Origin: Thermodesulfobacteriota bacterium
GTDB taxonomy: Bacteria > Desulfobacterota_D > UBA1144 > Nemesobacterales > UBA2774
Assembly: GCA_963422265.1 (NCBI GenBank)
Contig: OY729416.1
Location: 448,001 to 512,000 of the forward strand
Length of the DNA: 64,000 bases
Direction: 5' to 3'
The stretch's first letter is position 1. Each line of letters opens with the position of its first letter. Made by a program: the position numbers and the translations under genes. This document shows positions 12,061 to 63,748 of this stretch, one piece after another. Under the pieces are notes generated by a model that saw only the letters and a list, made by a program, of their open reading frames with translations, ran no database searches and had not been told where the DNA came from.

Positions 12061-12067
12061 AGCCACT

Positions 12068-12802
12068 GTGATTAGAACAAGAAATCAGGCGATTGCAAGA
12101 CAGGGTGCCGGCACGAATTATTTAGCGACAGTCAGTGATTTGATGGCTGGCATAGTATTTTTATTCATAATAACGCTAATTATTTTTGCTAAACAAATGA
12201 GCGAAAGAAACCAAGAAATAAGGCAGGCTTCCGAGACAAGACAGCAATTTCTGGAACAGTTGAAATACCGTCTGGTAAAACATAATATAGACGTTCAGGT
12301 GATTCTTGGAGAAGGAGTACTGCGCTTTCCCTCTGATGTGCGGGGTGATCTACTTACTACAGGAATCCGATTTAGAATTGGGGACGAAAAGCCTACCAAA
12401 GAATCTATAAAAGTCATTCCAATAATAGCTAGGGAGTTGAGTGAACTTACACCATGCTTTACTGCCAATTGGACGCCAAATTGCCCTGACAAAAAGCCAA
12501 ATTCCTTTGTAGGAACCATACTTATTGAGGGACACACTGATAATCTGCCGGTGAAACTAAACAGTCAACACATTAGATACAGGAATAATATGGAATTATC
12601 TTCTCTACGAGCAAATAGTATATTCCTGAATCTTAGACAGGATAAAGAAACGGGGGAGCAATTAATGAAATTAACAAACTCAAACGGAGAGCGAATATTG
12701 GGAGTTAGTGGCTATGGTGAGTTTCGTCCCATATCAGAAAAAGACAGTGAGAATCGCAGAATTGACCTAAGAGTTTTAATGGAGATTCCCAATAGAGGGT
12801 AA
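12068..12802 (+). CDS. zorB: Zorya ZorB (MotB-like TM plus OmpA-like peptidoglycan-binding domain)
   Basis: TVSDLMAGIVFLF (conserved Asp), IEGHTD, NMELSSLRA, GYGEFRP, NRRIDLR. Confidence 0.92.
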   Translation: MIRTRNQAIARQGAGTNYLATVSDLMAGIVFLFIITLIIFAKQMSERNQEIRQASETRQQFLEQLKYRLVKHNIDVQVILGEGVLRFPSDVRGDLLTTGIRFRIGDEKPTKESIKVIPIIARELSELTPCFTANWTPNCPDKKPNSFVGTILIEGHTDNLPVKLNSQHIRYRNNMELSSLRANSIFLNLRQDKETGEQLMKLTNSNGERILGVSGYGEFRPISEKDSENRRIDLRVLMEIPNRG

Positions 12803-46899: not shown

Positions 46900-47439
46900 A
46901 TGAGCCTTTCTTCTCAAATATCTGAAGTTAGTATTGTAATGGGTTCTCAGTCTGATTGGCAAACTATGAAAGCCACAACGGAGATTTTAGAATCTCTCGA
47001 GATAAGCTACGAGACTAAAATTGTTTCAGCCCATAGAACTCCTGACCGTCTTTATGAATACTCTAAGTCCGCCTGTGAACGCGGCATTAAAGTCATTATA
47101 GCAGGAGCTGGAGGGGCGGCTCATTTACCGGGGATGGTAGCTAGTATGACCGCGCTCCCAGTCCTCGGTGTGCCTATAGAAAGTAGATCTTTAAAAGGTT
47201 TGGATAGCCTGTTATCAATTGCACAAATGCCCGCGGGTGTTCCGGTTGGAACTTTGGCAATTGGCACTGCCGGGGCTAAGAATTCAGCGCTGCTTGCGGC
47301 GGCAATCCTCTCAATATCAGATGATAAACTACGCGATAGACTTGAGCAGTTTAGAAAGAAACAGACGGCTGGAATTGCCGTTAAACCTAGTAGAGACCCA
47401 ACCTCGTCAATTCTGAAAAAGATCTCGAAGCACGCTTAA
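46900..47439 (+). CDS. purE: N5-CAIR mutase
   Basis: [32 protein letters not shown]. Confidence 0.97.
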
Positions 47440-47443
47440 CTGC

Positions 47444-48514
47444 ATGAAGTCTCAGGTTAAAACGCTTGGTATATTAGGAGGCGGTCAGCTTGGACGTATG
47501 AGCACGCTTGCAGCGGCTAATCTTGGGATCAGGGTGCATATATACTGTCCGGACGAAGAAAGCCCCGCATCACAAGTAGCTGAAAAAACTTATGTTGGGA
47601 ACTATAGCGACAAGAAAAAACTCAGGGCTTTCGCCAACGGTGTTGACGTTGTTTCTTATGAGTTTGAAAACATACCCGTAGAAACGGTGCGTTTTATAGA
47701 AAACGTAAGACCTGTATTTCCAAATTGTAAACTCCTTGAGATTTCCCAGAACCGCATTACCGAGAAGAGATTCTTAAATAACGTCGGTATTTCTACAGCA
47801 CACTGGACACCCATCAGAAGTGCTGGAGAGTTAGCTGCCGCCGTCCGGAGTGCTGAGAAGCAAGATTTTATACTCAAGACTGCTCGGTTCGGGTACGACG
47901 GCAAGGGTCAGCTTGTTCATAAAGCCGGCAGCGATCCAAAAAAGAACTTTGAAAGACTAAATTCAAAAGAACTAATCCTTGAGGAAAAAGTCAATTTTTC
48001 ACGCGAAATATCGATTATCATCGCACGTGATAAGAACCGAAAATCGGCGCTTTACGGTCCGGTGCTGAACGAGCATAAAAACCACATACTTTCAAAGAGC
48101 ACAATACCTGCCCCGATTGAAGATGAAATTGCGGCTAAGGCACTCAGAGTTACGCGCAAGCTTGCGGAAGCGTTAGATTTAATCGGGGTGCTAGCGCTTG
48201 AAATGTTTGTAACCAAGGATGGGCGTATTCTTGCAAACGAAATTGCCCCTCGCACGCACAACTCTGGGCACTGGACTATTGACGCGTGTTATGTATCTCA
48301 GTTTGAGCAGCACGTGCGCACTGTATGTGGTCTTCCCGTTGGAAACCCCGCTCGGCATTCAAATGCGGTAATGATAAACTTCCTCGGGAGCGACGTTGAT
48401 AAGGTAAATAAATACTACAAAATGAAAGGCTCCTGTATACACTTATACGGCAAGTCTGAAATCAGAAAAGGGCGAAAGATGGGACACATTACTATTTTGA
48501 AGCCTATTAAGTAA
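47444..48514 (+). CDS. purK: N5-CAIR synthetase
   Basis: GILGGGQLGRM, GYDGKGQ, NEIAPRTHNSGH, HLYGK..R.GRKMGH. Confidence 0.96.
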   Translation: MKSQVKTLGILGGGQLGRMSTLAAANLGIRVHIYCPDEESPASQVAEKTYVGNYSDKKKLRAFANGVDVVSYEFENIPVETVRFIENVRPVFPNCKLLEISQNRITEKRFLNNVGISTAHWTPIRSAGELAAAVRSAEKQDFILKTARFGYDGKGQLVHKAGSDPKKNFERLNSKELILEEKVNFSREISIIIARDKNRKSALYGPVLNEHKNHILSKSTIPAPIEDEIAAKALRVTRKLAEALDLIGVLALEMFVTKDGRILANEIAPRTHNSGHWTIDACYVSQFEQHVRTVCGLPVGNPARHSNAVMINFLGSDVDKVNKYYKMKGSCIHLYGKSEIRKGRKMGHITILKPIK

Positions 48515-48654
48515 GGGGTCTCGTAACTTACTTACCCTACCCTTCTATATTTTTGCCTATCTGTGCTTGAATGTGTATATTCGGTACCAAAAGTGAATAA
48601 TGACTAGAAAAGCTATCCACCACCTACTATTCACGCTATACCAGTACTTAGATT

Positions 48655-51255
48655 ATGCGAAAACAGTCGCTTTTTGATTCATTAAAAGAGTCCTCTCTTA
48701 ATTGGCGTAAGGGTGGATATAGTTGTGATAATTATCCTCTGATTAGCGAAGTTCTCACCTACCAGATGGAGACGCAGGGGGATAATCCGAGCCTGAGGTT
48801 TCTGCGCGAGCCGCAGTTTCTCGCGCTTGAAGTGTATTGGTATGTTCGTCTCAAACTGAATACCCCTCGTATCATAGACCTTTACAAGCTCTACTACGGG
48901 GACGATAAGAGAAATTTTTTTGAGATTCTCGGCGTTCCCATATCTAGGGATGCGTTAGAATGGGCGACCATAGAGGCCGTTATCAAAAAAATCAAAAGCG
49001 ATCCCGATTTTGTCTCTGAAAAGAAAATTCAGGCATTGCACGAGGCGGCAATGTTGGACTATCCAAGTTACATCCTCGCCTTGGCAATGGGTGCCGGCAA
49101 AACCGTGCTAATCGGGACTATTATAGCCATAGAATTTGCCCTGTCTCTGCGCTACCCCAAGGGATACTTCATGAAAAACGCCCTGGTTTTCGCTCCCGGT
49201 ACGACGATCATAGAATCCTTGCGTGAACTCAGCAATATGCCTTATGAAAACATTCTACCACCCGATCTCTATCGAGATTTTCTTGCCAACCTGAAAATTG
49301 AGTACCCGAGCAAAGAGAAAGATATACAGGCACAAAGGGGGAGCATCTATAACCTAATAGTGACAAATACGGAGAAGATCAGCCTGCGCGCTAATAGGAG
49401 AAGAAATCAGCAACAGGAAGCATTTGAGCGTGAGGAACTGCGAGCCAACCTGAGGTTGCAAAAGATTACCAGCCTGCCCAATCTTGGTGTCTTTTCAGAT
49501 GAAGCTCATCACACTTACGGCAACACTTTCGACAAACTGAAACGGGTACGGCAAACAATAAATTATATCCACAAGGAAACGCCTATTGTAGCGGTGATCA
49601 ACATGACTGGGACGCCTTACTACAAAAAGCAAATCTTGAAAGAGGTAGTTGTCTGGTATGGGCTGGGAGATGGCATTAAAGATAATATACTTAAAGACCT
49701 AGTAGATGGGATTCATCAATATGATATTGGAGAACAATCAGAACAGGGTGTGTTCAGGGACATTATCAAGGAATTTTTTGCCCATTATGGCGATGTTTCA
49801 CTCCCTGATGGTTCACAAGCTAAGATTGCCTTTTATTTCAAGACGCAGGAACATCTGAATAATTCCCGTCTTTTGATTGAACAAGCAATGACAGAGATAG
49901 GAGAAAATGTAGCTCAGATATTAATCAATACGCAACAATCAAGCGCAACCGAGATTGGTGAGTTTAAGCGTCTTAACAACCCCAACAATCAAAAACGGGT
50001 TATTCTGCTGATTGGCAAGGGCGTGGAAGGATGGAACTGCCCGAGTCTATTTGCCTGCGCGCTCATCAAGAAGCAGACCACTAGCAATAACTATGTATTA
50101 CAGGCATCTACCCGATGCCTACGACAAGTGCCAGGAAATAGGCATTCAGCGAAGGTCTTTCTCGATTATAGCAATGCTAAGATTTTGGACAAGGAACTAC
50201 AAGATAACTTTGGCACCAGCCTTGACCGCCTTAGTGCCGGGACGAAGGATAAACAGACCATAACCTTGCGCATTATGAAAACGCAATTACCAAAGCTGGA
50301 AATTACGCGGACGGTTAGGCGTGCCGTGCGAACTGAAGCGGTGCATGGTGAAATCAAGCTGGAAAGGCCGCAACCACAGGAAAGTCCTGCAATACTGCGA
50401 AATATCTTGACGCTAGACTTCAGAGGCCCCAGAGAAATACTGATGCCCACGGGCGATACGAAAGAACTGCCTACTGGCGAACAAATGACAAACTGCCATA
50501 CTGCTGCTTGGAAAATCGCCACGAGATACCATCTCCCGGTCATGCCGATTTTGAGAAAACTCCGTTTCTTATATCCTGATGCCGAAATGCCGAATAACCA
50601 TTTATACGGACTGCACCGGCAGGTTGAAAAACAGCAGACAAACTACGAGACAGTTGAAGAAAAAATAACCGAAGTGATGGCGTTGATCAGACTTCAGGAT
50701 GAAAATGGGGAAGACGTCTTTGAAAAAAATGAGGACGACATTTATGTTCACCATTTGCGTTTGCTAAAGAGGACTTATGAAAGAATGGAACAGGATGGAT
50801 TGTTTGCTAATAGTAAAGACTATCAAGACAAGCATGATCTGAGCTTTCATTATACGCCCTATAGTTTTGATAGCGAACCGGAGCGTTCCTTCTTTCATCA
50901 AATTTTATCAAGCCTCAACACCAACCCCGACGACGTGGAGACGTTTCTATTTACAGGTGGATTAACCGATCCTAAGAAGACTGATTTTCATTTTGAATAT
51001 TTGGGTGAGGATAAACGGTATCATCGCTACTTCCCCGATTTTGTGATTGTGAAAAAGACAGGTGAGTTTTACATCGTCGAAGTCAAGGCTGAGAGAGATC
51101 TAAGGGATAAAACAGTGGAAGCGAAGAAAAAGGCGGTGGAAAGATTGCAAAAAATGCAGCCTGATAAGTTCAAGTATAGTGTTGTCTATGCATCTACGAC
51201 TTCTATAAACACAACAGAAATCAAGCCGGTTTTGGATTGGGCGAAAAACACATGA
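48655..51255 (+). CDS. res: Type III restriction enzyme Res subunit (SF2 helicase plus PD-(D/E)xK nuclease)
   Basis: AMGAGKT, DEAHH, MTGTP, EGWN, QASTRCLR; C-terminal YFPDFVI...EVK. Confidence 0.85.
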   Translation: MRKQSLFDSLKESSLNWRKGGYSCDNYPLISEVLTYQMETQGDNPSLRFLREPQFLALEVYWYVRLKLNTPRIIDLYKLYYGDDKRNFFEILGVPISRDALEWATIEAVIKKIKSDPDFVSEKKIQALHEAAMLDYPSYILALAMGAGKTVLIGTIIAIEFALSLRYPKGYFMKNALVFAPGTTIIESLRELSNMPYENILPPDLYRDFLANLKIEYPSKEKDIQAQRGSIYNLIVTNTEKISLRANRRRNQQQEAFEREELRANLRLQKITSLPNLGVFSDEAHHTYGNTFDKLKRVRQTINYIHKETPIVAVINMTGTPYYKKQILKEVVVWYGLGDGIKDNILKDLVDGIHQYDIGEQSEQGVFRDIIKEFFAHYGDVSLPDGSQAKIAFYFKTQEHLNNSRLLIEQAMTEIGENVAQILINTQQSSATEIGEFKRLNNPNNQKRVILLIGKGVEGWNCPSLFACALIKKQTTSNNYVLQASTRCLRQVPGNRHSAKVFLDYSNAKILDKELQDNFGTSLDRLSAGTKDKQTITLRIMKTQLPKLEITRTVRRAVRTEAVHGEIKLERPQPQESPAILRNILTLDFRGPREILMPTGDTKELPTGEQMTNCHTAAWKIATRYHLPVMPILRKLRFLYPDAEMPNNHLYGLHRQVEKQQTNYETVEEKITEVMALIRLQDENGEDVFEKNEDDIYVHHLRLLKRTYERMEQDGLFANSKDYQDKHDLSFHYTPYSFDSEPERSFFHQILSSLNTNPDDVETFLFTGGLTDPKKTDFHFEYLGEDKRYHRYFPDFVIVKKTGEFYIVEVKAERDLRDKTVEAKKKAVERLQKMQPDKFKYSVVYASTTSINTTEIKPVLDWAKNT

Positions 51256-53078
51256 AACTTGTAAAGCTTCATGTGGAAGGTTTTAGAGGTTTTGCTGAAA
51301 AGACCACTGTAAAATTTGATGATCTTACGGTATTTGTGGGGAAGAACGATGCAGGCAAGTCTTCGATTCTTGATGCTTTAAACATTTTCTTTGAAGCAGG
51401 CAAGATAGATATAGGTGATGTGAACACTGGACACCAAAATACCAGCTCGTCTTCTGTAGTCATCTCATGCGAATTTACCGACTACCCTGATAAATTGGTT
51501 ATAGATGCCTCAAATGAAATATCACTATATGAAGAATACTTACTGAATTCCGATCAAAATATACACATTAAGAAGGAATACGTTGGCAAGCATTTAACAT
51601 CTCAAGTTTATCTTGTGGCTCATCATCCTAGTAAAGATAATTTAGGAGACCTATTAGAACTTAGTATTAACGACTTGAAAAAACGTGCGCGAGATATTAA
51701 TGTCGATTTATCAGATGTTACTCAAACAATAAAAGCTGAAATACGCCATGCTATATGGAATAAGTGTGACGCGCATGCGTTTTTAAAAGAAAAAGAGATT
51801 CCAATAGATAAAAATGCTAAAGGTGAATTCAAGTCTATTGAAAAGAGTCTTAAAAAGTACATGCCAATATTTGCTTTGTTCAAATCTGATAGGCCAAATC
51901 TGGATCAGGATTCCGAGGCTCAAGACCCTCTAAAATTGGCTGTCAAGGAAATATTGAAAGAAGGAAAACAAGAACTTGATAAGGTTGCTTCTAAGATACG
52001 AGATAAATTACAACAGGTGGCTGATAGGACTGTAGAGAAAATAAAAGAGATGGACCCTGAAATCGCGAAACAACTAACCCCAAAAGTCGGTGAGCCTGCG
52101 TGGGATAAGGTATTCAAAATATCTCTCACAAGTGAAGAAGAAGTTCCAGTGAATAAACGGGGAAGTGGTGTGAGAAGACTGATATTGCTGAATTTCTTTA
52201 GGGTAAAGGCAGAAGAAAAAGCGAATGAGAAAGACGTAATTTATGCTATTGAAGAACCTGAAACATCTCAACACCCAAATCATCAGAAAATGTTAGTTAA
52301 TGCTTTTGAAGATCTTGTGCATCGCGGAAATTGTCAGGTATTTGTGACAACGCATACGCCAATGCTGGCTAGCCTTGTTCCAGATAATTGCCTGCGCTAT
52401 GTAAAAATTGATAACGGGGAGCGAAAGGTCATTGATGAGTTGGGCGACGAAGAAAAGAAAGAAATTGCTATTAGTCTAGGAGTATTGCCTGATAACAATG
52501 TGAAGTTGTTTTTATTTGTTGAAGGGAAAAATGATGAAAACTTTTTGAAAGGAATTGCGAAATTATTTTCCCTCGACCTGCAAGAAAAGGAAAAACGCGG
52601 AGAGTTGATTTTTATCTCTATGGGAGGAGGCAGTAATAGCAATCTGCAATACTGGGCAAATAAACTAGCAGAATTAAATAGGAAAGAGATGTATATCTAT
52701 GACAAGGATAATGATAATTCCCCTGATAGTGGAGAGAATGAAAATATCACTTTATTCCGAACTTGTAAAAGCGAGATGGAAAATTATATACATCCCGATA
52801 CCATCAAGGATGCTTACAAGGAACAGAATATAGAGATAAAAATAGAAGAAAACGAAATTCAAGATAATACTGATGTTCCAGTGTTGATTGCCAAGAAAGT
52901 TTATCAAGTAAGCGAAGGGCAAAAGAATTGGTCTGACATTACTGAGAAAGAAAAAAAACAAAAGGAGTCTAGAGTGAAGAGAATTCTTAATACATCTGCC
53001 GTAGAAAAGATGACTGGAGAACAGTTACGAGAAATAGGAGGATGGGATGAGATTAAAAATACACTGAACGCACGATGA
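51252..53078 (+). CDS. OLD-family ABC-ATPase/TOPRIM nuclease
   Basis: GKNDAGKS Walker A, RGSG signature, IEEPE Walker B, TTH switch; TOPRIM FVEGKND...YDKD; ATGA overlap with res and with mod. Confidence 0.85.
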   Translation: MKLVKLHVEGFRGFAEKTTVKFDDLTVFVGKNDAGKSSILDALNIFFEAGKIDIGDVNTGHQNTSSSSVVISCEFTDYPDKLVIDASNEISLYEEYLLNSDQNIHIKKEYVGKHLTSQVYLVAHHPSKDNLGDLLELSINDLKKRARDINVDLSDVTQTIKAEIRHAIWNKCDAHAFLKEKEIPIDKNAKGEFKSIEKSLKKYMPIFALFKSDRPNLDQDSEAQDPLKLAVKEILKEGKQELDKVASKIRDKLQQVADRTVEKIKEMDPEIAKQLTPKVGEPAWDKVFKISLTSEEEVPVNKRGSGVRRLILLNFFRVKAEEKANEKDVIYAIEEPETSQHPNHQKMLVNAFEDLVHRGNCQVFVTTHTPMLASLVPDNCLRYVKIDNGERKVIDELGDEEKKEIAISLGVLPDNNVKLFLFVEGKNDENFLKGIAKLFSLDLQEKEKRGELIFISMGGGSNSNLQYWANKLAELNRKEMYIYDKDNDNSPDSGENENITLFRTCKSEMENYIHPDTIKDAYKEQNIEIKIEENEIQDNTDVPVLIAKKVYQVSEGQKNWSDITEKEKKQKESRVKRILNTSAVEKMTGEQLREIGGWDEIKNTLNAR

Positions 53079-54805
53079 AAAAACCTAAATCTCTCAAAAT
53101 CACCCCTATCAAGGGGCGGCCGATGCTGCATTGGGTTGGTAAAAAGCCGCTGGACGTGGTGCGGCATTTCCCGGCGCAGGTGTGCGAGACGGTTGGGGTA
53201 ACAAGCCCGCCTGCTGAACCTTCTTACCGGGAATTTAAGAAAAATAGTTACAATCTGCTGTTTCACGGTGACAACAAGGAAATTTTATCGTCACTAATTG
53301 TGGCCGGGTTCCGTGGCAAGGTGGCTTTGATTTATATTGACCCGCCGTTTGACTCAGGGGCGGATTATGTACGCCGGGTGAAACTGCGCGGGCAATCTGA
53401 AAAGCTGGAGGGTGAAGGGCATACTTCCATTGAGCAAGCACAATACACTGATATCTGGGCGAACGATAATTATCTGCAGTTCATGTATGAGCGGCTGATA
53501 CTGATGCGAGAGTTATTGAGTGATAAAGGTAGTATCTATCTGCATTGCGATTGGCATAAGAACCATCACCTGCGATTCTTATTGGATGAAGTGTTTGGGG
53601 AGGAGAATTTCGTGAATGAGGTTGTTTGGTATTACAAAGATGCTTCAGGAATTATGAAAAAAGGATTTAGAAAGAAGCACGATACCGTCCTTATTTATGC
53701 CAAAAGTGAAAAATTCTATTTTAACTCTGATGTTGTAAGGCAGGATTATGGAGCATCAACAAAAAAAGCGGCTGAATCGGGAACTGTTTCTTTTGGCAGA
53801 CCCACAAAAATAAATTCATTAGGTAAATACCCAGATGATGTTTTAGAAATTTCCATCATTAACAGCCAAGCAAAAGAGCGGCTTAATTTTCCCACCCAAA
53901 AACCCGAGGACCTGTTGGAGCGCATCATAAAAGCTTCTAGTGATGACGGTTCCATTGTTTTAGATTGCTTTTGTGGTAGCGGCACCGCGGCTGCCGTAGC
54001 CGAGAAGCTGGGCCGCCGCTGGATCATGGCGGACCTGAACAAAGGGGCAATCAAAACCACTATGAAGCGATTGCAAGGCATTATTAACAGAAAGAACGGA
54101 GACCTTGCAGAGAAAAATGGACGTGGATTTATTCATTATCGGGTGAATAACTACGATTTTGCCAAACAGATCGAGCTCAAGAAAATAATCATCTCCAAAT
54201 ATGGAGTTCAAAAGGACAATGGGGATTTATTCTTTGATGGCTTGTATCAGGGGCAGTTGGCGAAGATTATTGACCTGAATAGACCTTTGACGCGGCTGGA
54301 CATTCAGATCATCAAGGATGAAATTCAAAACAACCGCCCGGAGGAAACACGCGACATCACTGTATTCTGCAATGGTTCAGAGTTAGAAATAATCAATGAA
54401 CTTGCCCAAGATAAAAACCCCATCAACAAAATCAAAGTTTGCGACATCCAGCAAGATGGCATGGTAACGAATCAGCCCGCAGAAGCGGACGTGTGCATCA
54501 CTAAACAAGGCGTGAAGGCAGAGGTAATGATCAATGACTATATCAGCCCTTCCATACTGGCACGTATGGATATAGACCGCACTATATTTGATGAGCAGAT
54601 TGACGATTTCCGAGCACAGATTGATTGCGTGCTGATTGACAACGACTATGACGGTGAGCGTTTCAACATTGTGGAGAGCGATTTACCACAAAGGAAAACG
54701 GATTATATCAGGGGCGAGTACCTGCTTACCCTCCCACACCCTGATGCCAAAGTGGCAGTAAAAATTGTGGATATGCTGGGCGAGGAAGTCGTTGTGGTGA
54801 GATAG
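53075..54805 (+). CDS. mod: Type III R-M Mod subunit (beta-class amino methyltransferase)
   Basis: GDNKEIL, LIYIDPPF (motif IV), variable TRD, FPTQKPE.LLERII, VLDCFCGSGT (motif I). Confidence 0.9.
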   Translation: MKKPKSLKITPIKGRPMLHWVGKKPLDVVRHFPAQVCETVGVTSPPAEPSYREFKKNSYNLLFHGDNKEILSSLIVAGFRGKVALIYIDPPFDSGADYVRRVKLRGQSEKLEGEGHTSIEQAQYTDIWANDNYLQFMYERLILMRELLSDKGSIYLHCDWHKNHHLRFLLDEVFGEENFVNEVVWYYKDASGIMKKGFRKKHDTVLIYAKSEKFYFNSDVVRQDYGASTKKAAESGTVSFGRPTKINSLGKYPDDVLEISIINSQAKERLNFPTQKPEDLLERIIKASSDDGSIVLDCFCGSGTAAAVAEKLGRRWIMADLNKGAIKTTMKRLQGIINRKNGDLAEKNGRGFIHYRVNNYDFAKQIELKKIIISKYGVQKDNGDLFFDGLYQGQLAKIIDLNRPLTRLDIQIIKDEIQNNRPEETRDITVFCNGSELEIINELAQDKNPINKIKVCDIQQDGMVTNQPAEADVCITKQGVKAEVMINDYISPSILARMDIDRTIFDEQIDDFRAQIDCVLIDNDYDGERFNIVESDLPQRKTDYIRGEYLLTLPHPDAKVAVKIVDMLGEEVVVVR

Positions 54806-54827
54806 CCGCAGGAATATAATAATATAA

Positions 54828-54842
54828 CGCTCTAAAAGAGCG
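54828..54842. terminator. Short hairpin after mod
   Basis: CGCTCT-aaa-AGAGCG; no clear U-tract on the plus strand. Confidence 0.25.
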
Positions 54843-54907
54843 AAAAAGATAGCCGTGTATCACATACGAGTGTATCAGACAAACAACTTCATCAGCTTGA
54901 GGCAGCA

Positions 54908-56290
54908 ATGATCTGTAATAGGCAATTTGAAATAAACAATCTTGGGGTCATAAGGAACGGGTCTTTTGAAGTGAAACCGCTTACCCTTTTTTGCGGCCCG
55001 AATAATAGTGGTAAGACCTGGGCAATGTATTCGCTATATCATTTTTATTCTTTTTTAAGACATGGCTTATCGCTGGCGCCTGTACTGGAAGAAAGTATCA
55101 ATATGTTACAACAAGGGTCTCGCCAATTTAATTTTATTGATTGGCTACAGCGTAACCACGAAGAGATCATTGATATTTGCAAGCTCCGAGTTTCAGAATC
55201 CCTACCCGATTTGTTTAACAGCCCATCTACAACGTTTCAGAACGCATCTTTCGGTTTGGTGATGAATACTGATGATTGGAGGCATGCTCTACAAACTTCA
55301 CAGGAGAAAACATATACGGATAAAAGCAAGAAGGAGACGATACGTTTTTCAAAGCCCGAAGGTGGAGAAATCATTGATATTTCTCATCAAGGAGCAAACG
55401 AGGATTTTCTGAAACGTAGTCTAGCGGCTTTTTTGAAAGACTTTATTGCGAATTGGTTGGTTCCTGGTATTGAAAATGCCGATATTTTCCTGATGCCTGC
55501 CGAGCGCAATGGTCTCCATTTATTTTTCCGTGAGCTCAGCAGTCGCCGCACGGCATTACTGCATCATGCCTCCAAAGAAAATATTGATATTAGCGAATTA
55601 CTGCGTGACGTCATACGTTCCCGCTATGCGATTCCAATCGCTAAATATATTGACTGGCTGAATAGTCTCGCGGAAATAAAAAAAATGGGTAGGGGTAAGT
55701 TTCACAGCTACGCGGAGAAATTGAAAAAATTGGCTGGCGGTGCGTATAGAGTTGATGCGAGGACCAGCGACATTACCTTCAAACCCTACCAGAAAAAACG
55801 TGATAGGAAACCAACGAAATTGTTGGGGTTGCATACTACGTCCAGCACAGTAAAGAGCCTGTTCGGGCTGTGGTTTTACCTGGAGTATCAGGCAAAATCT
55901 GGAGATACGTTGATGATTGATGAGCCAGAACTCAATATTCACCCTGAAAATCAGCGCAAGTTGGCGAGGTTTTTCGCCACGCTAGTCAACGCCGGCTTAA
56001 ACATAGTGATCAGCACGCATAGCGATTATATGGTGCGTGAGTTCAATTCACTTATTATGCTAAGTCGAGATAGGGACAGTAAGCTAAGGAAGAAACATGG
56101 TTATGCCAAAGAGGAAGTGTTAGAGCCGAAACAAGTCGGAGCATATTTATTTGATAAGCAAAAAATAGAGGCATTTGAGATTACACCGGAAGATGGTATC
56201 TACGCCACTACGTTTGATGACGTGATTCGTGACCTGAATAGGGTCAACGACGATATCTACTACAGCTTGAAGGAAGCGCAAGATGAGTAG
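54908..56290 (+). CDS. ABC-type (AAA_15/AAA_21-like) ATPase, defence-associated
   Basis: LFCGPNNSGKT, MPAER, LMIDEPELNIHPENQ, STHSD. Confidence 0.85.
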   Translation: MICNRQFEINNLGVIRNGSFEVKPLTLFCGPNNSGKTWAMYSLYHFYSFLRHGLSLAPVLEESINMLQQGSRQFNFIDWLQRNHEEIIDICKLRVSESLPDLFNSPSTTFQNASFGLVMNTDDWRHALQTSQEKTYTDKSKKETIRFSKPEGGEIIDISHQGANEDFLKRSLAAFLKDFIANWLVPGIENADIFLMPAERNGLHLFFRELSSRRTALLHHASKENIDISELLRDVIRSRYAIPIAKYIDWLNSLAEIKKMGRGKFHSYAEKLKKLAGGAYRVDARTSDITFKPYQKKRDRKPTKLLGLHTTSSTVKSLFGLWFYLEYQAKSGDTLMIDEPELNIHPENQRKLARFFATLVNAGLNIVISTHSDYMVREFNSLIMLSRDRDSKLRKKHGYAKEEVLEPKQVGAYLFDKQKIEAFEITPEDGIYATTFDDVIRDLNRVNDDIYYSLKEAQDE

Positions 56291-56852
56291 AAAACTCATT
56301 GAGTTATTTCAACGGTCTATTAACTCTGATTCTTGTTTGCAAAGAGAAGGTAGAAGCTGGCTGCTTCAGGATAATAATTGCAAAATAAGTTTGAGAGTTT
56401 CTAATCGGAACTCGCTCGGCTTTAGTTTGGATCATAAAAGTCAGCCTTCTCCTTTCCCTTTTTTCTCATCTAAGCCGCCATCGGGAATCGCTACAATGTG
56501 TGATGCAATCGTCGCGTTATCGTATAAAAATAAAGCTTATATATTTGTCATTGAGCAGAAAACAAACAATCAGGATAGTTATAAGAAACAATTAGCCAAT
56601 GGCAAATATTTTTGTGATTGGTTACTAATGCTGCTAAAAGAACATAAGCATTATAGCGACACACCCATTTTCATCGGTCTGCTATGCTGGAGGCCTCGTG
56701 AGAAATCGCCTGATAAGGGTACAACAACACATGGGATTAGTAAAGATAAAAAACAACATTCATTGTTTAATATGCTTTACGAAACCTCGAACCAAGAAGA
56801 AATCTACTTACAAGAACTGGCAGACGATGCCAATGGCCAATCTTTAGTATGA
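56283..56852 (+). CDS. Hypothetical protein, possible PD-(D/E)xK nuclease partner of the ATPase
   Basis: 8-bp overlap with the ATPase; CDAIV...FVIEQK...QL pattern. Confidence 0.6.
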   Translation: MSRKLIELFQRSINSDSCLQREGRSWLLQDNNCKISLRVSNRNSLGFSLDHKSQPSPFPFFSSKPPSGIATMCDAIVALSYKNKAYIFVIEQKTNNQDSYKKQLANGKYFCDWLLMLLKEHKHYSDTPIFIGLLCWRPREKSPDKGTTTHGISKDKKQHSLFNMLYETSNQEEIYLQELADDANGQSLV

Positions 56853-56853
56853 T

Positions 56854-56907
56854 AAATAAATATCAGCAAGTAGCGCTCACTTGCTTTGAAAAGGATCATA
56901 TTTATTT
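56854..56907. terminator. Nested inverted repeat / terminator after the ATPase-nuclease pair
   Basis: AGCAAGT-7 nt-ACTTGCT followed by TT, enclosed by AAATAAATAT...ATATTTATTT. Confidence 0.5.
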
Positions 56908-56979
56908 TTATTGCCATCGAGATGCCTTGTCCGAAACTATTAGCGCTCGCTGTGGTGTGAATGTGGAGCATTTGTAATT

Positions 56980-57246
56980 ATGTGGGAACATAAGAAAATA
57001 CTGATAACGATGAAGACCTACCCCAATTTGTCTGCCAAATACGATGAATTAGTTTGTGCCTCCGGCATTTTAGAAGATGGTTCATGGATACGTCTTTATC
57101 CGATCCCTTTTCGGCAGATGGATTATGACAGGCAATACAGAAAATACGACTGGATAGAAATCGAGACTCAGCGGCGCGGGCAAGACATGTGGCCAGAGAG
57201 TTTTACGCCAATTCCTGATTTTCTATTATTGTCAAAAAGGCAATAG
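56980..57246 (+). pseudogene. Probable 3'-truncated gene remnant (KTYP..S.KY.E.VC...WIRLYP.PFR family)
   Basis: Conserved-looking N-terminus ends abruptly after PESF; its last codons are occupied by a promoter for the next module. Confidence 0.6.
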
Positions 57247-57257
57247 AGTTTTATAAT
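57229..57257 (+). promoter_or_regulatory. Near-consensus sigma70 promoter for the 57330-58580 module
   Basis: TTGTCA-17 bp-TATAAT. Confidence 0.7.
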
Positions 57258-57329
57258 ACTTAAAGCTAAATTAGAAAGAATAAACAATACAGATAGAACA
57301 GTAAAAGCGAATGAAATGCAGGGAGCAAT

Positions 57330-57820
57330 ATGTTAACAGATCAAGAAATTCAAGACCTTATAACATCTCACAAAAAGATAAAAGAAAAAGTTCCTGCTGA
57401 AGGATACAAAGAAAATAATGAACACAGGCGTTGCACTTTGGCATTGGAGTCTATCCCCGAAATTAGTAATGTGTTTTCGGTCTTCATTCGTCAAAACAAG
57501 ACATTTATAGAAAACTTTTCTATTGGCTTGCGTTACAAAACAGAAGATAAAGTATTAGGTTCCGTGACGCTTATTCGTTACAATGGTTCTCACGGGGAGA
57601 AGAGCCGAAGGGTCACTACGACAAACCACATATACATCGTATAACTGCCAAGGAATTGAGATCAGGCAGTGTTAAGCCACAGGAAAGTCAGAGAGAAATT
57701 ACCGATACTTATAGGACGTTTGAAGAAGCTCTTAGAGTTTTCTTTGACGATGTTGGCGTAAGAGACTATTTAAAATACTTCCCTGACTTAAATCAAAGGA
57801 AACTTTTCAATGGACATTAA
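57330..57820 (+). pseudogene. Frameshifted His-rich gene (DUF6978-like) upstream of a DUF1828-like gene
   Basis: Frame 1 ends ...IRYNGSHGEKSR; the -1 frame from 57611 continues GHYDKPHIHRITAKE...TFEEALRVFF...LFNGH* to 57820, overlapping the next ATG. Confidence 0.75.
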
Positions 57821-58580
57821 TAGAATTATATCCCTGTTACAAGACAGGACAAGAACTGGTTTTGATATTTATGAACGCAGATCGGGCAAGTATCAACTTA
57901 TAAACCCTGTACTCCATGAGGACGGTGATATGGTGGATATATATCTGCAAGATAGTCCTAAAAGTGAAAACCATATACGCATCTGTGATTTTGGCATGGC
58001 GTTAATGCGCCTTTCTTACACTTATGAAATTAATACCGATTCCCGCCATAGAATTTTTGACAGCATTCTTATAAACAATGGCGTTCAAAATGACGCGGGA
58101 AATCTTTACTTGGATACGACACTCAATATGCTTTATGAGAGCATCCTTCAGTTCGCAGGCTGCGTGCAAAAAGTGTGCAACATGCGCTATTGGAGCAGAG
58201 AAATCGTCATAAGCGCATTTTATGATGACCTAAAAGAATATACAACTACTGAGCTAAGAAACTTTAACCCAATGCCTAATGAATCCCCTTTGCCTAATTA
58301 TGATATTATAAGCGTGGACTGGTTACTAACTCATAATAACCGCAGCCTTTATTTATTCGGAGTAAACACTAACGACAAAGCCAAAAGCACTGCCATTTCT
58401 TTGCTGGAATTCCAGAAGCAAAAATTGAATTTTATAAGTCTCGTCGTGCATGAAAATATGGAGGAACTTGGTAGAAAAGAGAGAATGTACCTTACCAAGA
58501 ATGCCGATACGCAATATCCGACCTTGGGAGATTTCCGAGACAAAGCGCCCTCGGATATTCCGAGACTCGCGGCGGCGTAA
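57810..58580 (+). CDS. DUF1828-like protein with a possible restriction-endonuclease-like C-terminal domain
   Basis: P..HEDGD.VDIYL...IRICDFG..L..L motif; C-terminal VDWLL...YLFGV. Confidence 0.7.
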   Translation: MDINRIISLLQDRTRTGFDIYERRSGKYQLINPVLHEDGDMVDIYLQDSPKSENHIRICDFGMALMRLSYTYEINTDSRHRIFDSILINNGVQNDAGNLYLDTTLNMLYESILQFAGCVQKVCNMRYWSREIVISAFYDDLKEYTTTELRNFNPMPNESPLPNYDIISVDWLLTHNNRSLYLFGVNTNDKAKSTAISLLEFQKQKLNFISLVVHENMEELGRKERMYLTKNADTQYPTLGDFRDKAPSDIPRLAAA

Positions 58581-58916
58581 TTACAAAAAACTACAGTTAA
58601 CTATACGCTGCAGCGCGGTTCCCTCTTGTTAAAGCTGTTACTTAAGTATTTGAATATGTTAAGCATGTTAATTTATTAGTTTGAAATTGTAATGTAACCC
58701 TCTAAAATCACTATATATATTCCAGTATTTGTTTATAGAGAAACCTTTACAAGATAAATCCCTAGAACCCGCAACCGTGGATATCACCTACTCTTCACAA
58801 GAATTAGGAAAGAGAACACTATAATAGTGGACTATGCAAATGAAGTAGTTTAGAGTAACATCATAATTTTAGACGTATTCTATTACACTGTAAGGGTTAT
58901 TGTAAGGAAATACATA

Positions 58917-60188
58917 TTGCCATCTTCCTTCAGATTCATTCACACCGCAGATATCCATCTAGACAGCCCGCTTAAGGGACTCGCCGGCCAGGACAAATAT
59001 ATAGCCGAACGTATTCGCACTGCCACACGCGATGCTTTTAACCAGCTTGTTGAACTCTCTATTGGAGAGCGAGCCGACTTTTTTATCATTGCTGGCGATC
59101 TTTACGATGGCGACTGGCGCGATTACAACACCGGACTGTTCTTCGTTCGTCAGATGGGGCGTCTCAAGAGTGCTGGCGTACCCGTGTATCTTCTATACGG
59201 CAATCACGATGCTGAAAGCCAGATTACTCGTCACCTCAACTTACCAGAAAATGTGAATACTTTTGGGAGCAGAAATCCAGTCACTTTCAAAATTAATAAT
59301 TTGGACGTCGCCTTGCATGGGCAGAGCTTCCGTCAACGCGATATCGCCGACAATCTAGTACTTAGTTATCCCGATCCAGTTGATAGCATATTTAACATTG
59401 GCGTTCTTCATACTGGACTTGGCGGTATAGGTGGTCATGAAAATTACGCGCCATGCGCTCTCGATGATCTTATAAACAAGGGATACGATTATTGGGCGCT
59501 TGGCCATGTACACAAGTCCAGGGTACTCAATGAGTATCCGCATATCGCCTTTCCCGGTAACTTGCAAGGGCGCAATGCGAACGAGACCGGCGATAGGGGT
59601 GCCTATATAGTCACGGTGGAAGATGGTGAGATTGTTGATTTCTCAGCCTTACACAGTGACGTTGTGCGATGGGCTCTTGTTCCCGTTGAGATGGATGGCG
59701 TTGCAAGCATTGACCAAGTTATTGATCATATTCGGGATGCGATTGAGGACGCCGTTAAAAATCTGGCAGACAGTCGCTTGTTGGTGTGCCGCTTGCGATT
59801 ACAGGGTAGCACGGAAATTCACGAGAAGATTTTAACTTCCCTGCATAGTCTCACCGCCGAAGCGCGCTCAAGCGCGCTTGGTCTAGGGAGCGACGTAGCA
59901 TGGGTCGAAAGAGTTGTTGTTGAGACGAAAACGGTTACAGATTCAAGAGCTTCGGTGGAACGTGAAGATACTGTTGGTGAATTGATGCAAATGTTGCAAG
60001 AAGCGAGTGCCGACACGGATTTCATAGAAGAGCTTAAAGCTGATATCGGCGAGATGATCGGACGTTTGCCTCCCGATCTGCGCAGTGAAGTTGAGGATGC
60101 AGTGCTCAAGGCGGCGATTGGTGGAGACTACGCTAAGCTCATTGCCGAAGCCAAGCCTTACCTGTTAGCGCGCCTGATAGAGGGATAG
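58917..60188 (+). CDS. Mre11/SbcD-like metallophosphoesterase nuclease (YhaO-like)
   Basis: HTADIHLD, AGDLYD, GNHD, YWALGHVH, PGNLQGR; TTG start. Confidence 0.9.
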   Translation: MPSSFRFIHTADIHLDSPLKGLAGQDKYIAERIRTATRDAFNQLVELSIGERADFFIIAGDLYDGDWRDYNTGLFFVRQMGRLKSAGVPVYLLYGNHDAESQITRHLNLPENVNTFGSRNPVTFKINNLDVALHGQSFRQRDIADNLVLSYPDPVDSIFNIGVLHTGLGGIGGHENYAPCALDDLINKGYDYWALGHVHKSRVLNEYPHIAFPGNLQGRNANETGDRGAYIVTVEDGEIVDFSALHSDVVRWALVPVEMDGVASIDQVIDHIRDAIEDAVKNLADSRLLVCRLRLQGSTEIHEKILTSLHSLTAEARSSALGLGSDVAWVERVVVETKTVTDSRASVEREDTVGELMQMLQEASADTDFIEELKADIGEMIGRLPPDLRSEVEDAVLKAAIGGDYAKLIAEAKPYLLARLIEG

Positions 60189-60196
60189 ATATAGAC

Positions 60197-63100
60197 ATGC
60201 GACTAAGACGTCTTGACCTTCTTCGCTACGGATGCTTTACGGATAAATCGTTTGAACTGCCTGTTAACCAATTTGATTTTCACATAATTTTCGGTTCCAA
60301 CGAAGCTGGCAAATCTACCGCGCTTGCGGCGATTGAAGACCTGATTTTTGATATGCCAAGGCACTCGCCCTATAACTTTTTACATGACTATACGAGTATG
60401 AGAGTCGGAGCCATTCTTGAATCTGAAGGTTCGTCACTGGAATTCGTCCGAAGGAAAGGGAGTAAGCATACCCTACTCGATATGAATAACTTGCCGATAA
60501 AAGGTGGTGAGGGACGTCTAAAACCTTTCCTTGCTGGGGTAGATAGATCATTTTTTGAGCGTATGTTTAGTCTCAACCACGTTCGGCTCGAGGCGGGAGG
60601 GCGAGAGATATTGGAGGCAAAGGATGAGATTGGACAGATGTTATTTTCAGCCGGAGCTGGCATTGTAGGTCTGAAGGGTCGGCTTAATAATATGCATAAC
60701 GAGGCTGATGGCTTGTGGGCACCGAGAAAAGCGGGACACAGAAAATACTATCAGGCTAGGGACAAGTTAGATGAAGCAAAGCGAGAATTGCGCGAAAAGA
60801 CATTGCCGGCAAACAAGTGGCAAAAACTAAGGCTAGATTATGAGAAGGCTGAAGAAAACTACTCTAACGCTAAAGAGAAATGTGAACAAGCGGAAGCAGG
60901 AAGAACGAAGCTCAATCGGATTCGCAGGGTATATAGATACGTCAGCCGCAAAGCACGATTAGAAGAAGAGATAAAAACTCTTAAAGATGTTGCCTCTCTA
61001 CCCGAGGATGCTAGGCAGAAACTTGACGCAGCCAACCGCCAAAAATCTGAATCCTCGGCACAGATCGAAGTACTCTCCAAACAACTGGAGGAAGCGCGTC
61101 GAAAATTGGAAAATCTGACATATGACAAAGCATTGGTAATACAAGCGGATGATGTAAAACAGCTTTCCGAACGGCGTATTGAGATTCGCAAGGAGAAGAC
61201 TGACCTACCCAAACGGCAGGCAGAACTGAACGCGGCTGAAATAGAAATGTGGCGTCTCGCAAAGGAGCTTGACTGGCACGAGAAGAATGGAGTCGATAAG
61301 CTGATTGAGCGCATTCCCAAACAAGTCAAGATAAAAGAGCTGCGATCTCTGCTTGTCCGTCGTAGAGAAATCTATTCAGGTATTGAAAGGCACTCCGAAG
61401 ATCTGAAAGAATCTCAAACCGATTTAGACAAAATACGTAAAAGCCTTGATGGAATGGGCGAGGAGAAAGACGTCTCCGGATTATCCGCCGTAATTAGGGC
61501 AGTGCGAGAGATGGGTGATATAACAACCCGCCTGCGTAACGCTGAACAAAAACATCTGGAGGTGCAAGGTTATGTTAATGGGTTGTTTGCCTCGCTACAT
61601 CCGGAGCTTCCAAGTGAAAAGGACGTTATAGATATAAAGGTGCCGCCGCGTCCAAGTGTCCAGAGTCTCCGCGACGAGATTAAGAATGGGGAGAGGCTAT
61701 TCCAAGAGAATTTTAAGCAGATTGAATCCATCAAACAAAAACTTAATAGTAATCGTAGCGCTTATGAGCACGCCGCGCGAGAAGGGAATACCGTTACTGC
61801 AGAAGAGCTTAAAAATGCAAGAAGCCACCGAGATACTCTCTGGAAGCTGGTGAGAAGCAAGCATATAGAAGAGGTAACGATCTCTGATAAACATCTATGT
61901 GATTATGATAAGGAACTAGACGATCTTCCCGCATCCTTAGAAATAGCGATGCGAAAGGCTGACGAGGTTGCGGATAGTAAGTTCGAGAATGCGGAGGTAT
62001 CTGGACGGCTAGCGGAAATGTCTCGTAACATCAACGAGCAAGAAGAAAAACTAGATCAATTACGTGAATTGGAAGAGAGTTTCAGAAAAGAAGGCCAATA
62101 CCTGAAAAATAGTTGGATATCTCTATGGAATAATGCTCCGTTCGAACCCCTTGATCCAGACGCCATGCTAGAGTGGATGGAAGCACATAATAAGCTGCTA
62201 GAGGCTATTGGTCGACGAGACGAAACAAGAGCGGCACTGATGTTCGTGTGTAGAGAAGAATATGAGGCTAAAGAGAATATTATGAATGAATTGAAAGCGT
62301 TTGGCATTGATAAATCTACTTTAGAGAAGAAAAGCCTACAGATGATCCTATCACGCGCCTCTGACTTGGAAGATAAATGCAAGAAAGAAGCACAGGAAAG
62401 GATTCAATTAAAAGAGAGCCTGCAGAATGCTTTAGACAGAGTTGAAAAACGCCAAAGGAGACTTCGTCAAGTTAAAAAAGATCAGGAAGAGTGGAAGGAG
62501 CTTATATACACGGCTTTAAGCGGTGTTGGGCTTGCGAGCGATTTGAGCTTGGAAGCAGTAGATGCACAGATCGATCTTATAGACCAGATGAAAGTTAAGG
62601 AAAGAGAAATAAATAATCTGCGTTATGATCGCATTGAAAAGATAAAGCGGGATATCGCCAATTATGAGTCAATGGTCAAGGAAGTTGTTAAGAAGGTAGC
62701 TGAGGACATTTCAGGCACAGGGGCTGACGATGCCGTTCTGCAAATCGAAAGCCGTTTGCAAGAAGCGCAGCGCCTGCGTACCCTCCAGGAAGAGACTAGA
62801 GAAGAGATTGATAAACTTACCAGAAAAGTATCTGAAGCGGAGAGAAAATATCAGGAGGTAGAGGCATCTGTCAAAAATCTCCGTGAAGTCGCTGACGTTA
62901 AAACAAATGAAGAGTTAAGAGAAGCTATAGAGAAATCTGACAGGCTTCGCCGTCTGAATAGCGAGTTAAAAGAGACACTTCAAATGCTAGAGAATGAAGG
63001 CGATTGTTTTACGGTTGAAGATTTAGAACGGGAATGCGCTGACGTCGATGACATAGATCAGGTTACCGCAAAAGAAACGGCAATAACCAAAGAATTAGCT

Positions 63101-63748
63101 CAACTAAGAGAAAGTGTGATTGAGACCTCTGGAACAAAGTCGGAGGCTAAGAGGGAGCTTGATGCGGTTGGCGGCGAAGATGCAGCTTCACGCGCTGCTG
63201 CAGAGCGGCAGGAAGCACTCGCCGAGATGCGTGAGGTGGCTGAGCATTACGTGCGGTTGCGTACATCAACAATGTTGCTGCAATGGGCAATTGACCGCTA
63301 TAGGCGAGAAAAACAGGCACCTCTCCTCAAAAGCACTGGAAAAATTTTCAGAATAATCACGGGTGGCTCGTTTGAAGGCTTAGGCATAGACTATGATGAT
63401 AAGGATAGGGCGCAGCTTATCGGGCTGAGATCAGACGGAAAGACTGTAGGGGTAGATGGCATGAGCACGGGAACGAGAGATCAACTCTACCTTGCACTAC
63501 GCGTGGCTTCCATCGAAGATTACCTAGATCACGCAAACGCCCTGCCATTCATTGCCGACGATCTTTTTATCAATTTTGATGATGATAGATCCTCAAAAGG
63601 CTTCCAAGTTCTTGAACGACTCGCGGACAAAACCCAGGTACTCTTCTTTACGCATCATAAGCATTTGGTAGATATAGCTCTATCTACCCTAGGAAAGTCA
63701 ACTCATATAGTTTCTTTGCAGGATAAAAAAACCAGTCCTTTAGATTAG
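60197..63748 (+). CDS. YhaN-family SMC/SbcC-like ATPase with a long coiled coil
   Basis: GSNEAGKST, about 900 aa of coiled coil, MSTGTRDQLYLALR signature, IADDLFINFDD, FFTHH. Confidence 0.9.
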   Translation: MRLRRLDLLRYGCFTDKSFELPVNQFDFHIIFGSNEAGKSTALAAIEDLIFDMPRHSPYNFLHDYTSMRVGAILESEGSSLEFVRRKGSKHTLLDMNNLPIKGGEGRLKPFLAGVDRSFFERMFSLNHVRLEAGGREILEAKDEIGQMLFSAGAGIVGLKGRLNNMHNEADGLWAPRKAGHRKYYQARDKLDEAKRELREKTLPANKWQKLRLDYEKAEENYSNAKEKCEQAEAGRTKLNRIRRVYRYVSRKARLEEEIKTLKDVASLPEDARQKLDAANRQKSESSAQIEVLSKQLEEARRKLENLTYDKALVIQADDVKQLSERRIEIRKEKTDLPKRQAELNAAEIEMWRLAKELDWHEKNGVDKLIERIPKQVKIKELRSLLVRRREIYSGIERHSEDLKESQTDLDKIRKSLDGMGEEKDVSGLSAVIRAVREMGDITTRLRNAEQKHLEVQGYVNGLFASLHPELPSEKDVIDIKVPPRPSVQSLRDEIKNGERLFQENFKQIESIKQKLNSNRSAYEHAAREGNTVTAEELKNARSHRDTLWKLVRSKHIEEVTISDKHLCDYDKELDDLPASLEIAMRKADEVADSKFENAEVSGRLAEMSRNINEQEEKLDQLRELEESFRKEGQYLKNSWISLWNNAPFEPLDPDAMLEWMEAHNKLLEAIGRRDETRAALMFVCREEYEAKENIMNELKAFGIDKSTLEKKSLQMILSRASDLEDKCKKEAQERIQLKESLQNALDRVEKRQRRLRQVKKDQEEWKELIYTALSGVGLASDLSLEAVDAQIDLIDQMKVKEREINNLRYDRIEKIKRDIANYESMVKEVVKKVAEDISGTGADDAVLQIESRLQEAQRLRTLQEETREEIDKLTRKVSEAERKYQEVEASVKNLREVADVKTNEELREAIEKSDRLRRLNSELKETLQMLENEGDCFTVEDLERECADVDDIDQVTAKETAITKELAQLRESVIETSGTKSEAKRELDAVGGEDAASRAAAERQEALAEMREVAEHYVRLRTSTMLLQWAIDRYRREKQAPLLKSTGKIFRIITGGSFEGLGIDYDDKDRAQLIGLRSDGKTVGVDGMSTGTRDQLYLALRVASIEDYLDHANALPFIADDLFINFDDDRSSKGFQVLERLADKTQVLFFTHHKHLVDIALSTLGKSTHIVSLQDKKTSPLD

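Follow-up and report, generated by a model that had tools for sequence, protein, structure and literature searches.

An OLD-family nuclease gene between res and mod of a Type III-like restriction-modification operon, a probable interchangeable defence cargo

Defence genes nested inside larger methylation-based systems have been described for Hma, BREX, DISARM and Type I restriction-modification (R-M) operons, where this embedding served as the basis for predicting the PDC families (Payne, Hughes, Fineran, Jackson, bioRxiv 10.1101/2024.01.29.577857). Among the embedded genes the preprint counts HEC-04, a validated fusion of an ATPase with a TOPRIM domain, and it already puts in print the general idea that embedded ABC-ATPase systems monitor their host system or sense anti-restriction proteins (bioRxiv 10.1101/2024.01.29.577857). 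The precedent for an effector nested in this way is PrrC of the EcoprrI Type I locus, the model of a back-up triggered by anti-restriction, which the preprint describes as almost confined to Type I loci (bioRxiv 10.1101/2024.01.29.577857). As for the proteins of the OLD family, the members of Class 1 are presented in a review as single genes away from other defence genes, and the review poses as an open question whether they defend on their own (PMC10568477). Here we analyze an OLD ATPase-TOPRIM gene located between the res-like gene and the mod gene of a Type III-like R-M operon, in a stretch of 64,000 nucleotides from a Thermodesulfobacteriota bacterium (contig OY729416.1, positions 448,001 to 512,000), hereafter called the window. 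Comparing this locus with its relatives, we consider it probable that the res/mod junction is a cargo slot and that OLD is one of its interchangeable passengers, acting on its own.

The three genes are co-directional (+ strand) and follow each other in the order res-OLD-mod, with an ATGA overlap at each junction in which the start codon of one gene is superimposed on the stop codon of the preceding one (Table 1). This order and both overlaps, reported in a preliminary description of the window, were read directly, and the gene identities proposed there proved right. The listing of open reading frames (ORFs) puts the first OLD start at a TTG (51237), upstream of the ATG at 51252; the latter is supported as the start because all 18 relatives in the alignment begin at its position, 17 of them reading MKL or MRL. 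No AGGAGG-like motif was found before the start of OLD or of mod (about 15 nt upstream of the OLD start were inspected). Contigs of public runs confirm the junctions: one covers 50753-53124, identical pieces across the res/OLD junction are present in two public runs with other organism labels, and no contig joining res straight to mod was found in four public runs.

The composition of OLD is foreign relative to res, to mod and to the genome, which is a direct observation. A hand count of a few lines had already suggested that OLD is AT-richer than its flanks, and this is borne out systematically: its GC content is 0.366 and its GC content at third codon positions (GC3) 0.322, against 0.439 and 0.479 for res, 0.448 and 0.503 for mod, and a genome GC of 0.441. 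OLD falls at percentile 1.2 (GC) and 1.0 (GC3) among the genome's 909 ORFs of at least 250 aa, a reference set obtained by crude in-house ORF calling with some spurious frames included, in which res and mod are average. Two possible routes of arrival were tried and rejected: for a transposon-like insertion, no direct or inverted repeats flank 51252-53078 and no tRNA lies within 40000-64000; for a phage origin, there was a single partial match among 50,697 phage records. A hairpin at the OLD start was also discarded, the inverted repeat at 51249-51275 being different from the minimum-energy fold (local z of -1.5, equalled by 16 of 200 shuffles). The scan for promoters and terminators was uninformative, with counts no higher than in shuffles (15 promoter-like sites, such as the one at 48553-48581 with 9 of 12 matches, versus a mean of 20.7) and no credible internal promoter or terminator.

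Judging from their motifs, the two flanking genes encode a Type III-like pair. Mod is a beta-class N6-adenine methylase related to the characterised Type III Mod proteins (Pfam N6_N4_Mtase, 6.5e-53; PADLOC MTase_III, 4.2e-74): it matches Mod of EcoP15I (4zcf_A) at 1.1e-23 over residues 17-213, and its DPPF motif (residues 89-92), which precedes FCGSGT (about 299-304), is invariant in 29 homologues, as is the latter. For Res the Pfam matches are weak (ResIII, 2.6e-7; C-terminal Tn7_TnsA-like_N of the PD-(D/E)XK type, 2.4e-5), but the motifs AMGAGKT (G146/K149/T150), DEAH (D282-E283-A284-H285) and D795...E809-x-K811 do not vary among 19 homologues and point to a superfamily 2 (SF2) helicase followed by a C-terminal PD-(D/E)XK nuclease, the same succession as in the Type III enzyme EcoP15I (4ZCF). 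The Res family counts 2973 database matches, of which the best 120 are 62-80% identical. Searched against the models of PADLOC 2.0, Res gave no match even at E<=10, Hma models included; it scores under every NCBIfam cut-off, and neither the single sequence nor a 19-sequence profile matched any PDB sequence, that of EcoP15I Res included. Because Res is invisible to the tool, operons of this type would pass as orphan Type III methylases in PADLOC 2.0. No likeness to an Hma system was seen at the locus: beyond the lack of any Hma match for Res, no Hma model appears among the best 25 of the 60 PADLOC matches of Mod or the best 25 of the 108 of OLD.

Type III enzymes cut DNA in an ATP-dependent reaction requiring two inversely oriented unmethylated sites, and their Mod hemimethylates the target. 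The usual order of genes in Type III operons is mod then res. Unlike them, the present operon has res before mod, and its Res is without sequence match to any solved structure. The host operon is described here as a two-gene Type III-like R-M with res before mod, belonging to a widespread and poorly annotated family.

The existence of the slot was established from the relatives of this operon. The comparison comprised 82 Res loci, namely 80 metagenome loci out of the 396 Res relatives found, and two genomes, G055 and G085, which are the only ones with a Res relative among 120 genomes of the window's own phylum. The res stop and the mod start are both visible in 63 of the 82, the informative loci, the remaining 19 being without the 3' end of res (14), without mod in the available sequence (four) or too short (one). 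Res precedes mod in all 63. In 45 of them the two genes are adjacent, with a gap of -23 to +205 nt, so that relatives carrying res and mod without an insert, for which the preliminary description had asked, are in fact the majority. The other 18 are occupied by an insert of 501-2317 nt, and 16 of these inserts hold + strand ORFs, all co-directional with the operon and representing at least 12 cargo types (Table 1); L134 and L169 show gaps of about 500 nt without a + strand ORF of at least 60 aa. Both the slot and its alternative contents are therefore seen directly: a gene lies between the components of a system and is missing or replaced in related copies, as is characteristic of embedded cargo. 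The OLD clade of the window occurs between res and mod in none of the 63 informative loci and an unrelated OLD in one, which together with the 45 empty junctions speaks against the dedicated three-gene module that had been proposed for the window.

In the phylum itself, the two genomes illustrate both states. In G085 (L096) res overlaps mod directly by 17 nt, with an AGGAGG within the 3' end of res; it provides a natural res/mod overlap to set beside the earlier remark that deleting OLD from the window leaves a clean ATGA overlap, a remark which is true by arithmetic and proves nothing alone. G055 (L095) has four small ORFs at this junction, which encode DUF6978, DUF1828/PDC-M24B, a fragment resembling TIR and an unknown product. 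We also observed that the mod gene of G055 (L095, about 10744-12508) reads in two frames, with a break near residue 80 which corresponds to a frameshift or to an assembly error; that R-M copy may therefore be inactive.

The packing of the cargo is tight throughout. For the 17 occupied slots with ORFs, window included, the distance from the res stop to the cargo start ranges from -47 to +176 nt and that from the cargo stop to the mod start from -11 to +117 nt. Because the packing is equally tight whatever the cargo, the ATGA overlaps are a property of the slot and no mark of a special partnership between res, OLD and mod. The pace at which the contents change was evaluated on a maximum-likelihood tree of 62 Res proteins (two of less than 700 aa were left out; quick mode, support by the Shimodaira-Hasegawa-like approximate likelihood ratio test, SH-aLRT). 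The empty or occupied state needs 10 changes on this tree, at least 8 of them forced by well-supported branches. The four-member Res clade of the window (100% support) displays four different states: OLD, DUF6978 with DUF1828, empty, and PDC-S19. Elsewhere in the tree, Res branches of 0.001-0.004 separate different cargo (L146 versus L157, L147 versus L150). Cargo turnover is much faster than the divergence of the operon.

In the scenario we favour, co-directional defence genes exchanged horizontally would enter and leave the short res/mod junction. OLD would be read from the R-M transcript and promoter, and the translation of OLD and mod would proceed by termination-reinitiation at the ATGA overlaps. 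The OLD protein would act as an autonomous, ATP-controlled nuclease needing neither Res nor Mod. On the model of PARIS, Gabija and P2 Old, whose triggers are reported in two sources (bioRxiv 10.1101/2024.01.29.577857 and PMC10568477), the ABC ATPase part may sense a phage cue, most plausibly an anti-defence protein or a protein protecting DNA ends, and after sensing the TOPRIM part would cut nucleic acid. Through nesting the genes would be expressed together and transferred horizontally together, and defence would gain a second layer, while no physical complex of the three proteins would be involved.

Such an arrangement is not a new kind of system: its kind, embedded defence cargo, is known, and its host belongs to a family that has yet to be catalogued. 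As in the embedding described by Payne and collaborators, a co-directional defence gene is found between the components of a methylation-based system, and the contents vary among relatives. The cargo itself is of a kind that the preprint records, since HEC-04 also joins an ABC ATPase to TOPRIM, and the slot cargo found here includes the PDC families S13, S19, S32, M04A and M24B. The difference concerns the host, which is here a res-then-mod Type III-like pair, unlike those named in the preprint (Hma, BREX, DISARM and Type I R-M). We found no explicit report in the literature of a Type III-like operon as embedding host, although the supplements of the preprint may cover it. If the favoured scenario is true, the locus constitutes a clean natural example of restriction operons as docking sites for interchangeable defence genes, extends the documented embedding hosts to a res-then-mod Type III-like family missed by PADLOC 2.0, and offers an OLD nuclease which is bacterial, has no partner and stands in a well-defined context. 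Unannotated material also comes from the slot, namely pairs of 427+355 aa and of 82+348 aa and a single gene of about 330 aa, three cargo types which by the embedding argument are candidates for undescribed defence genes.

The distribution of the OLD clade was studied in its own right. At least 7812 relatives were counted in the database, with about 44% identity and spread over many phyla, the closest of which (P0004-P0007) show 66-72% identity. In a search of 61 genomes from the family and order to which the window belongs, a full-length relative was found only in G013 (39% identity), where it lies inside a BREX-like operon composed of DUF6079, methylase, AAA_15, a 297-aa ORF, OLD, SNF2 and PglZ. 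Contexts were then collected for 80 loci out of 585 relatives from species-representative genomes, with annotation by Pfam of all 140 immediate neighbours of at least 100 aa and of 93 larger genes at positions 2-4 (32 of the 125 listed were dropped), and by tblastn of Mod. The neighbours are highly diverse, 444 proteins falling into 396 clusters. An R-M, BREX or Type IV-type gene lies within about 3 ORFs of OLD in at least 22 of the 80 loci, given here as a raw count. Among these arrangements are an hsdR fragment followed by OLD-hsdM (L026), OLD-hsdM-hsdS (L078), and SNF2-OLD-327 aa-methylase-Mrr (L065). In L012, L014, L015 and L018 a Type III operon of canonical order, mod-(RhuM)-res, directly follows DUF2130-OLD, with the exception that in L012 DUF2130 is not the immediate neighbour. 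The other loci of the 80 present unrelated neighbours. On plasmids the clade is found as a lone cargo gene in 357 records, of which 291 are conjugative; one case is recombinase-OLD-IS110 on an Escherichia coli IncF plasmid. Since its neighbours are so diverse and since it occurs alone on plasmids, this large clade is mobile and without fixed partner, and its members settle alongside or within systems of Type I, Type III and BREX-like kind. The recurrence of nesting that had been anticipated for this locus thus holds in one sense and fails in another: OLD recurs with methylation-based systems (at least 22 of 80 loci, and the BREX-like operon of G013), whereas this OLD clade does not recur in the res/mod slot (0 of 63).

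Three observations were made in passing on these loci. Nitrospira moscoviensis (NZ_CP011801.1, L050) carries hsdR-hsdS-OLD-hsdM with overlaps of 4 and 8 nt; its OLD is 39% identical to that of the window, and this embedding in a Type I R-M operon, in a cultured and named strain, is a convenient experimental model. A DUF2130 protein of about 400-460 aa is encoded immediately upstream of OLD and co-directionally in 10 of the 80 loci, none being present in the window, and DUF2130-OLD may be a two-gene variant. A gene of the RhuM family lies between mod and res in Type III operons of canonical order, with overlaps of 4-8 nt, and represents another embedded cargo, in a different R-M family (Table 1).

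The context of the clade bears on the alternative that is best supported, in which OLD is a guard comparable to PrrC: contact with Res/Mod would keep OLD inactive, and an anti-restriction protein disabling the R-M system would free the back-up nuclease. The nesting and the ATGA coupling fit such a circuit, members of the clade are repeatedly met with Type I, Type III and BREX-like systems, either adjacent to them or within them, and there is the precedent of PrrC in EcoprrI, together with the triggering of PARIS, Gabija and PrrC by Ocr or Stp as the preprint of Payne et al. reports it. Of the 63 loci, however, 45 have an empty slot, unrelated cargo of at least 12 types occupies others, and res-OLD-mod recurs in none. 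A specific Res/Mod interface is unlikely as a family trait because the clade occurs with unrelated R-M architectures and alone on plasmids. Given an interchangeable cargo and a clade that associates with host systems regardless of their type, we judge the PrrC-like guard unlikely. The likeness to PrrC consists in an ABC-ATPase-type effector gene nested in an R-M operon; unlike PrrC, which is an RNA nuclease, the cargo here is interchangeable, its nuclease is a TOPRIM, and contact with the R-M enzyme is only hypothesised. A co-fold of OLD residues 1-400 with full-length Mod (score 0.00, mark 0.32) is evidence neither way. A variant of this idea would keep the slot and make it selected for guards, intact Res/Mod silencing OLD and perhaps other cargo until an anti-restriction protein sets OLD off. 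This variant seems to us rather improbable; if true, it would give Type III-like systems their first PrrC-like guard circuit, in which OLD is the back-up effector acting at the level of DNA.

At the protein level, OLD presents the N-terminal ABC ATPase and the C-terminal TOPRIM that define the OLD family. Pfam AAA_15 covers residues 1-372 (3.8e-77), OLD-like_TOPRIM_1 reaches 23.9 bits, under its 27-bit cut-off, and the PADLOC Old model matches residues 186-606 (2.2e-26); many GajA models match too. The match to PADLOC AriA (4.3e-64) is limited to the generic AAA_15 part, that to the fused AriAB is at 1.3e-17, and there is no Pfam DUF4435 match. An AlphaFold2 model matches over its full length GajA (2.4e-15), OLD from Thermus scotoductus (6p74, 4.2e-15) and the retron-Eco8 OLD (1.4e-12), the similarity to 6p74 in sequence being limited to the signature region (4.7e-10). 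In this the protein resembles the Class 1 members P2 Old and Thermus scotoductus OLD (6P74), which have the same fusion and no UvrD-like or reverse transcriptase (RT) partner. As stated in the preliminary description, no UvrD or RT gene is nearby: a scan of ORFs from 43.8 to 63.7 kb turned up neither a UvrD-like helicase nor an RT domain, and no Rfam family (retron RNA) matched at gathering score in 47000-60000. OLD is accordingly of the Class 1 type by context and partnerless, lacking the features of Gabija (Class 2) and of retrons (Class 3). It departs from the wording by which the review characterizes Class 1 (PMC10568477) in being nested in an R-M operon within a defence island. With PARIS (AriA/AriB) and Gabija (GajA/GajB) it shares an ABC ATPase coupled to a TOPRIM nuclease, and it matches the AriA, AriAB and GajA models, but it comes with neither a separate AriB/DUF4435 gene nor a GajB gene of UvrD-like type.

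These features have to be weighed against the possibility that OLD is inert, that is, a neutral or decaying insertion without current function. Its foreign composition would fit, as would the other remnants in the island, for instance the 88-aa PDC-M19B piece (56980-57246), and close to its 3' end it is 21 nt shorter than in the variant contig of another study. This contig, from a run with the same organism label, crosses from OLD into mod and has 21 extra nt, in frame, after 53044, which add 7 residues to the C-terminus of OLD and give a form nearer to the closest relatives; the copy of the window looks like the product of a deletion between short direct repeats. On the other side, the OLD frame is open and full length, and its catalytic motifs are intact, all the invariant ATPase and TOPRIM residues of 19 sequences being present: in the ATPase, G35-K36-S37 of Walker A, the signature N301-K302-R303-G304-S305-G306, E334-E335-P336-E337 and H368; in the TOPRIM, E424/G425/D428, D484/D486 and E508/E510, of which the acidic residues would by analogy be metal ligands. 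The predicted fold is confident (pLDDT, the predicted score of the local distance difference test, of 81), and the same junctions are found in contigs of runs from other studies. An inert OLD is in our opinion distinctly improbable.

That OLD is the obligate third subunit of a new, Hma-like restriction enzyme formed with Res and Mod is extremely unlikely, for although a helicase, an ATPase and a methylase share one tightly coupled operon, 45 of 63 related operons lack an intervening gene and their Res and Mod proteins are highly conserved all the same, the composition of OLD is unlike that of both flanks, and Res is without any PADLOC match, Hma models included.

Some points weigh against the reading of OLD as an autonomous, interchangeable cargo. 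ATGA junctions without a nearby Shine-Dalgarno-like motif would also suit the subunits of a complex made in fixed proportion. A small lineage with res-OLD-mod may exist among the closest OLD relatives (P0004-P0007), and the count of at least 22 of 80 loci looks higher than an overall tendency to sit in defence islands would give and could point to a functional link with methylation-based systems. The comparison, moreover, sampled 80 of the 396 Res relatives and 80 of the 585 OLD relatives, several metagenome loci being near-duplicates, and the genes were called by a simple in-house ORF script which makes their starts approximate.

Table 1. Features of the window, cargo found between res and mod in related loci, and associated genes of the OLD clade. 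Positions without a locus name are those of the window.
Feature	Location	Strand	Remarks
Intergenic stretch upstream of res	48515..48654	+	likely site of the operon promoter (predicted); purK end 48514, res start 48655
res-like gene	48655..51255	+	866 aa; SF2 helicase + C-terminal PD-(D/E)XK nuclease
ATGA overlap, OLD start codon / res stop codon	51252..51255	+	read directly
OLD-family ABC ATPase-TOPRIM nuclease gene	51252..53078	+	the cargo; 608 aa counted from ATG
ATGA overlap, mod start codon / OLD stop codon	53075..53078	+	read directly
mod gene, beta-class N6/N4 DNA methyltransferase, Type III-like	53075..54805	+	576 aa
PD-T4-4 A/B pair	54908-56290, 56283-56852		directly downstream of mod; PADLOC PD-T4-4_A 1.3e-115, PD-T4-4_B 7.1e-17
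88-aa ORF	56980-57246		PDC-M19B 2.2e-35, only first ~77 of 269 positions
DUF6978 + DUF1828/PDC-M24B pair	57330-57644, 57810-58580		downstream in the island of the window
Metallophos (Mre11/SbcD-like) + AAA_27 pair	58917-60188, 60197-63748		AAA_27 protein of 1183 aa
Slot cargo PDC-S19/DUF3644	L097		
Slot cargo PDC-S13/Bro-N	L105		
Slot cargo PDC-S32	L170		
Slot cargo DUF3800	L137, L147		L137 additionally matches PDC-M04A
Slot cargo Abi_2	L138		
Slot cargo ThsB-like TIR + SLATT	L146		
Slot cargo HTH-SocA/Panacea + 116-aa ORF	L150		
Slot cargo 571-aa OLD with PF20469 TOPRIM	L160		motif-level similarity only to the window OLD
Slot cargo DUF6978 + DUF1828/PDC-M24B set	L095 (G055)		
Slot cargo pair, 427+355 aa	L124 3253-5587, L157 2937-5283		no Pfam/PADLOC match
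Slot cargo pair, 82+348 aa	L145 3700-5006, L176 2996-4302		no Pfam/PADLOC match
Slot cargo, ~330 aa	L129 3252-4223, L153 8611-9618		no Pfam/PADLOC match
DUF2130-OLD loci	L014, L015, L017, L018, L025, L035, L040, L041, L082, L087		L040: only 212 aa on contig
RhuM gene	L012 12656-13744, L015 12586-13629, L018 11154-12212		

The surroundings of the operon differ on its two sides. Upstream of res are found purE, purK, scpAB and an xerD-like gene, while downstream the PD-T4-4 A/B pair follows mod directly, which places the R-M operon in a defence island. The 88-aa ORF located further downstream is probably what is left of a candidate defence gene after truncation. The cassette of DUF6978 and DUF1828 occurs both inside and outside the slot, since the pair present in the island of the window is the same that fills the slot of G055 (L095 8655-9919). 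The pair of Metallophos and AAA_27 may serve housekeeping, in the manner of SbcCD, or form one more defence module; in L042 this pair also comes directly after a member of the OLD clade, and in L064 OLD is preceded by a Metallophos gene.

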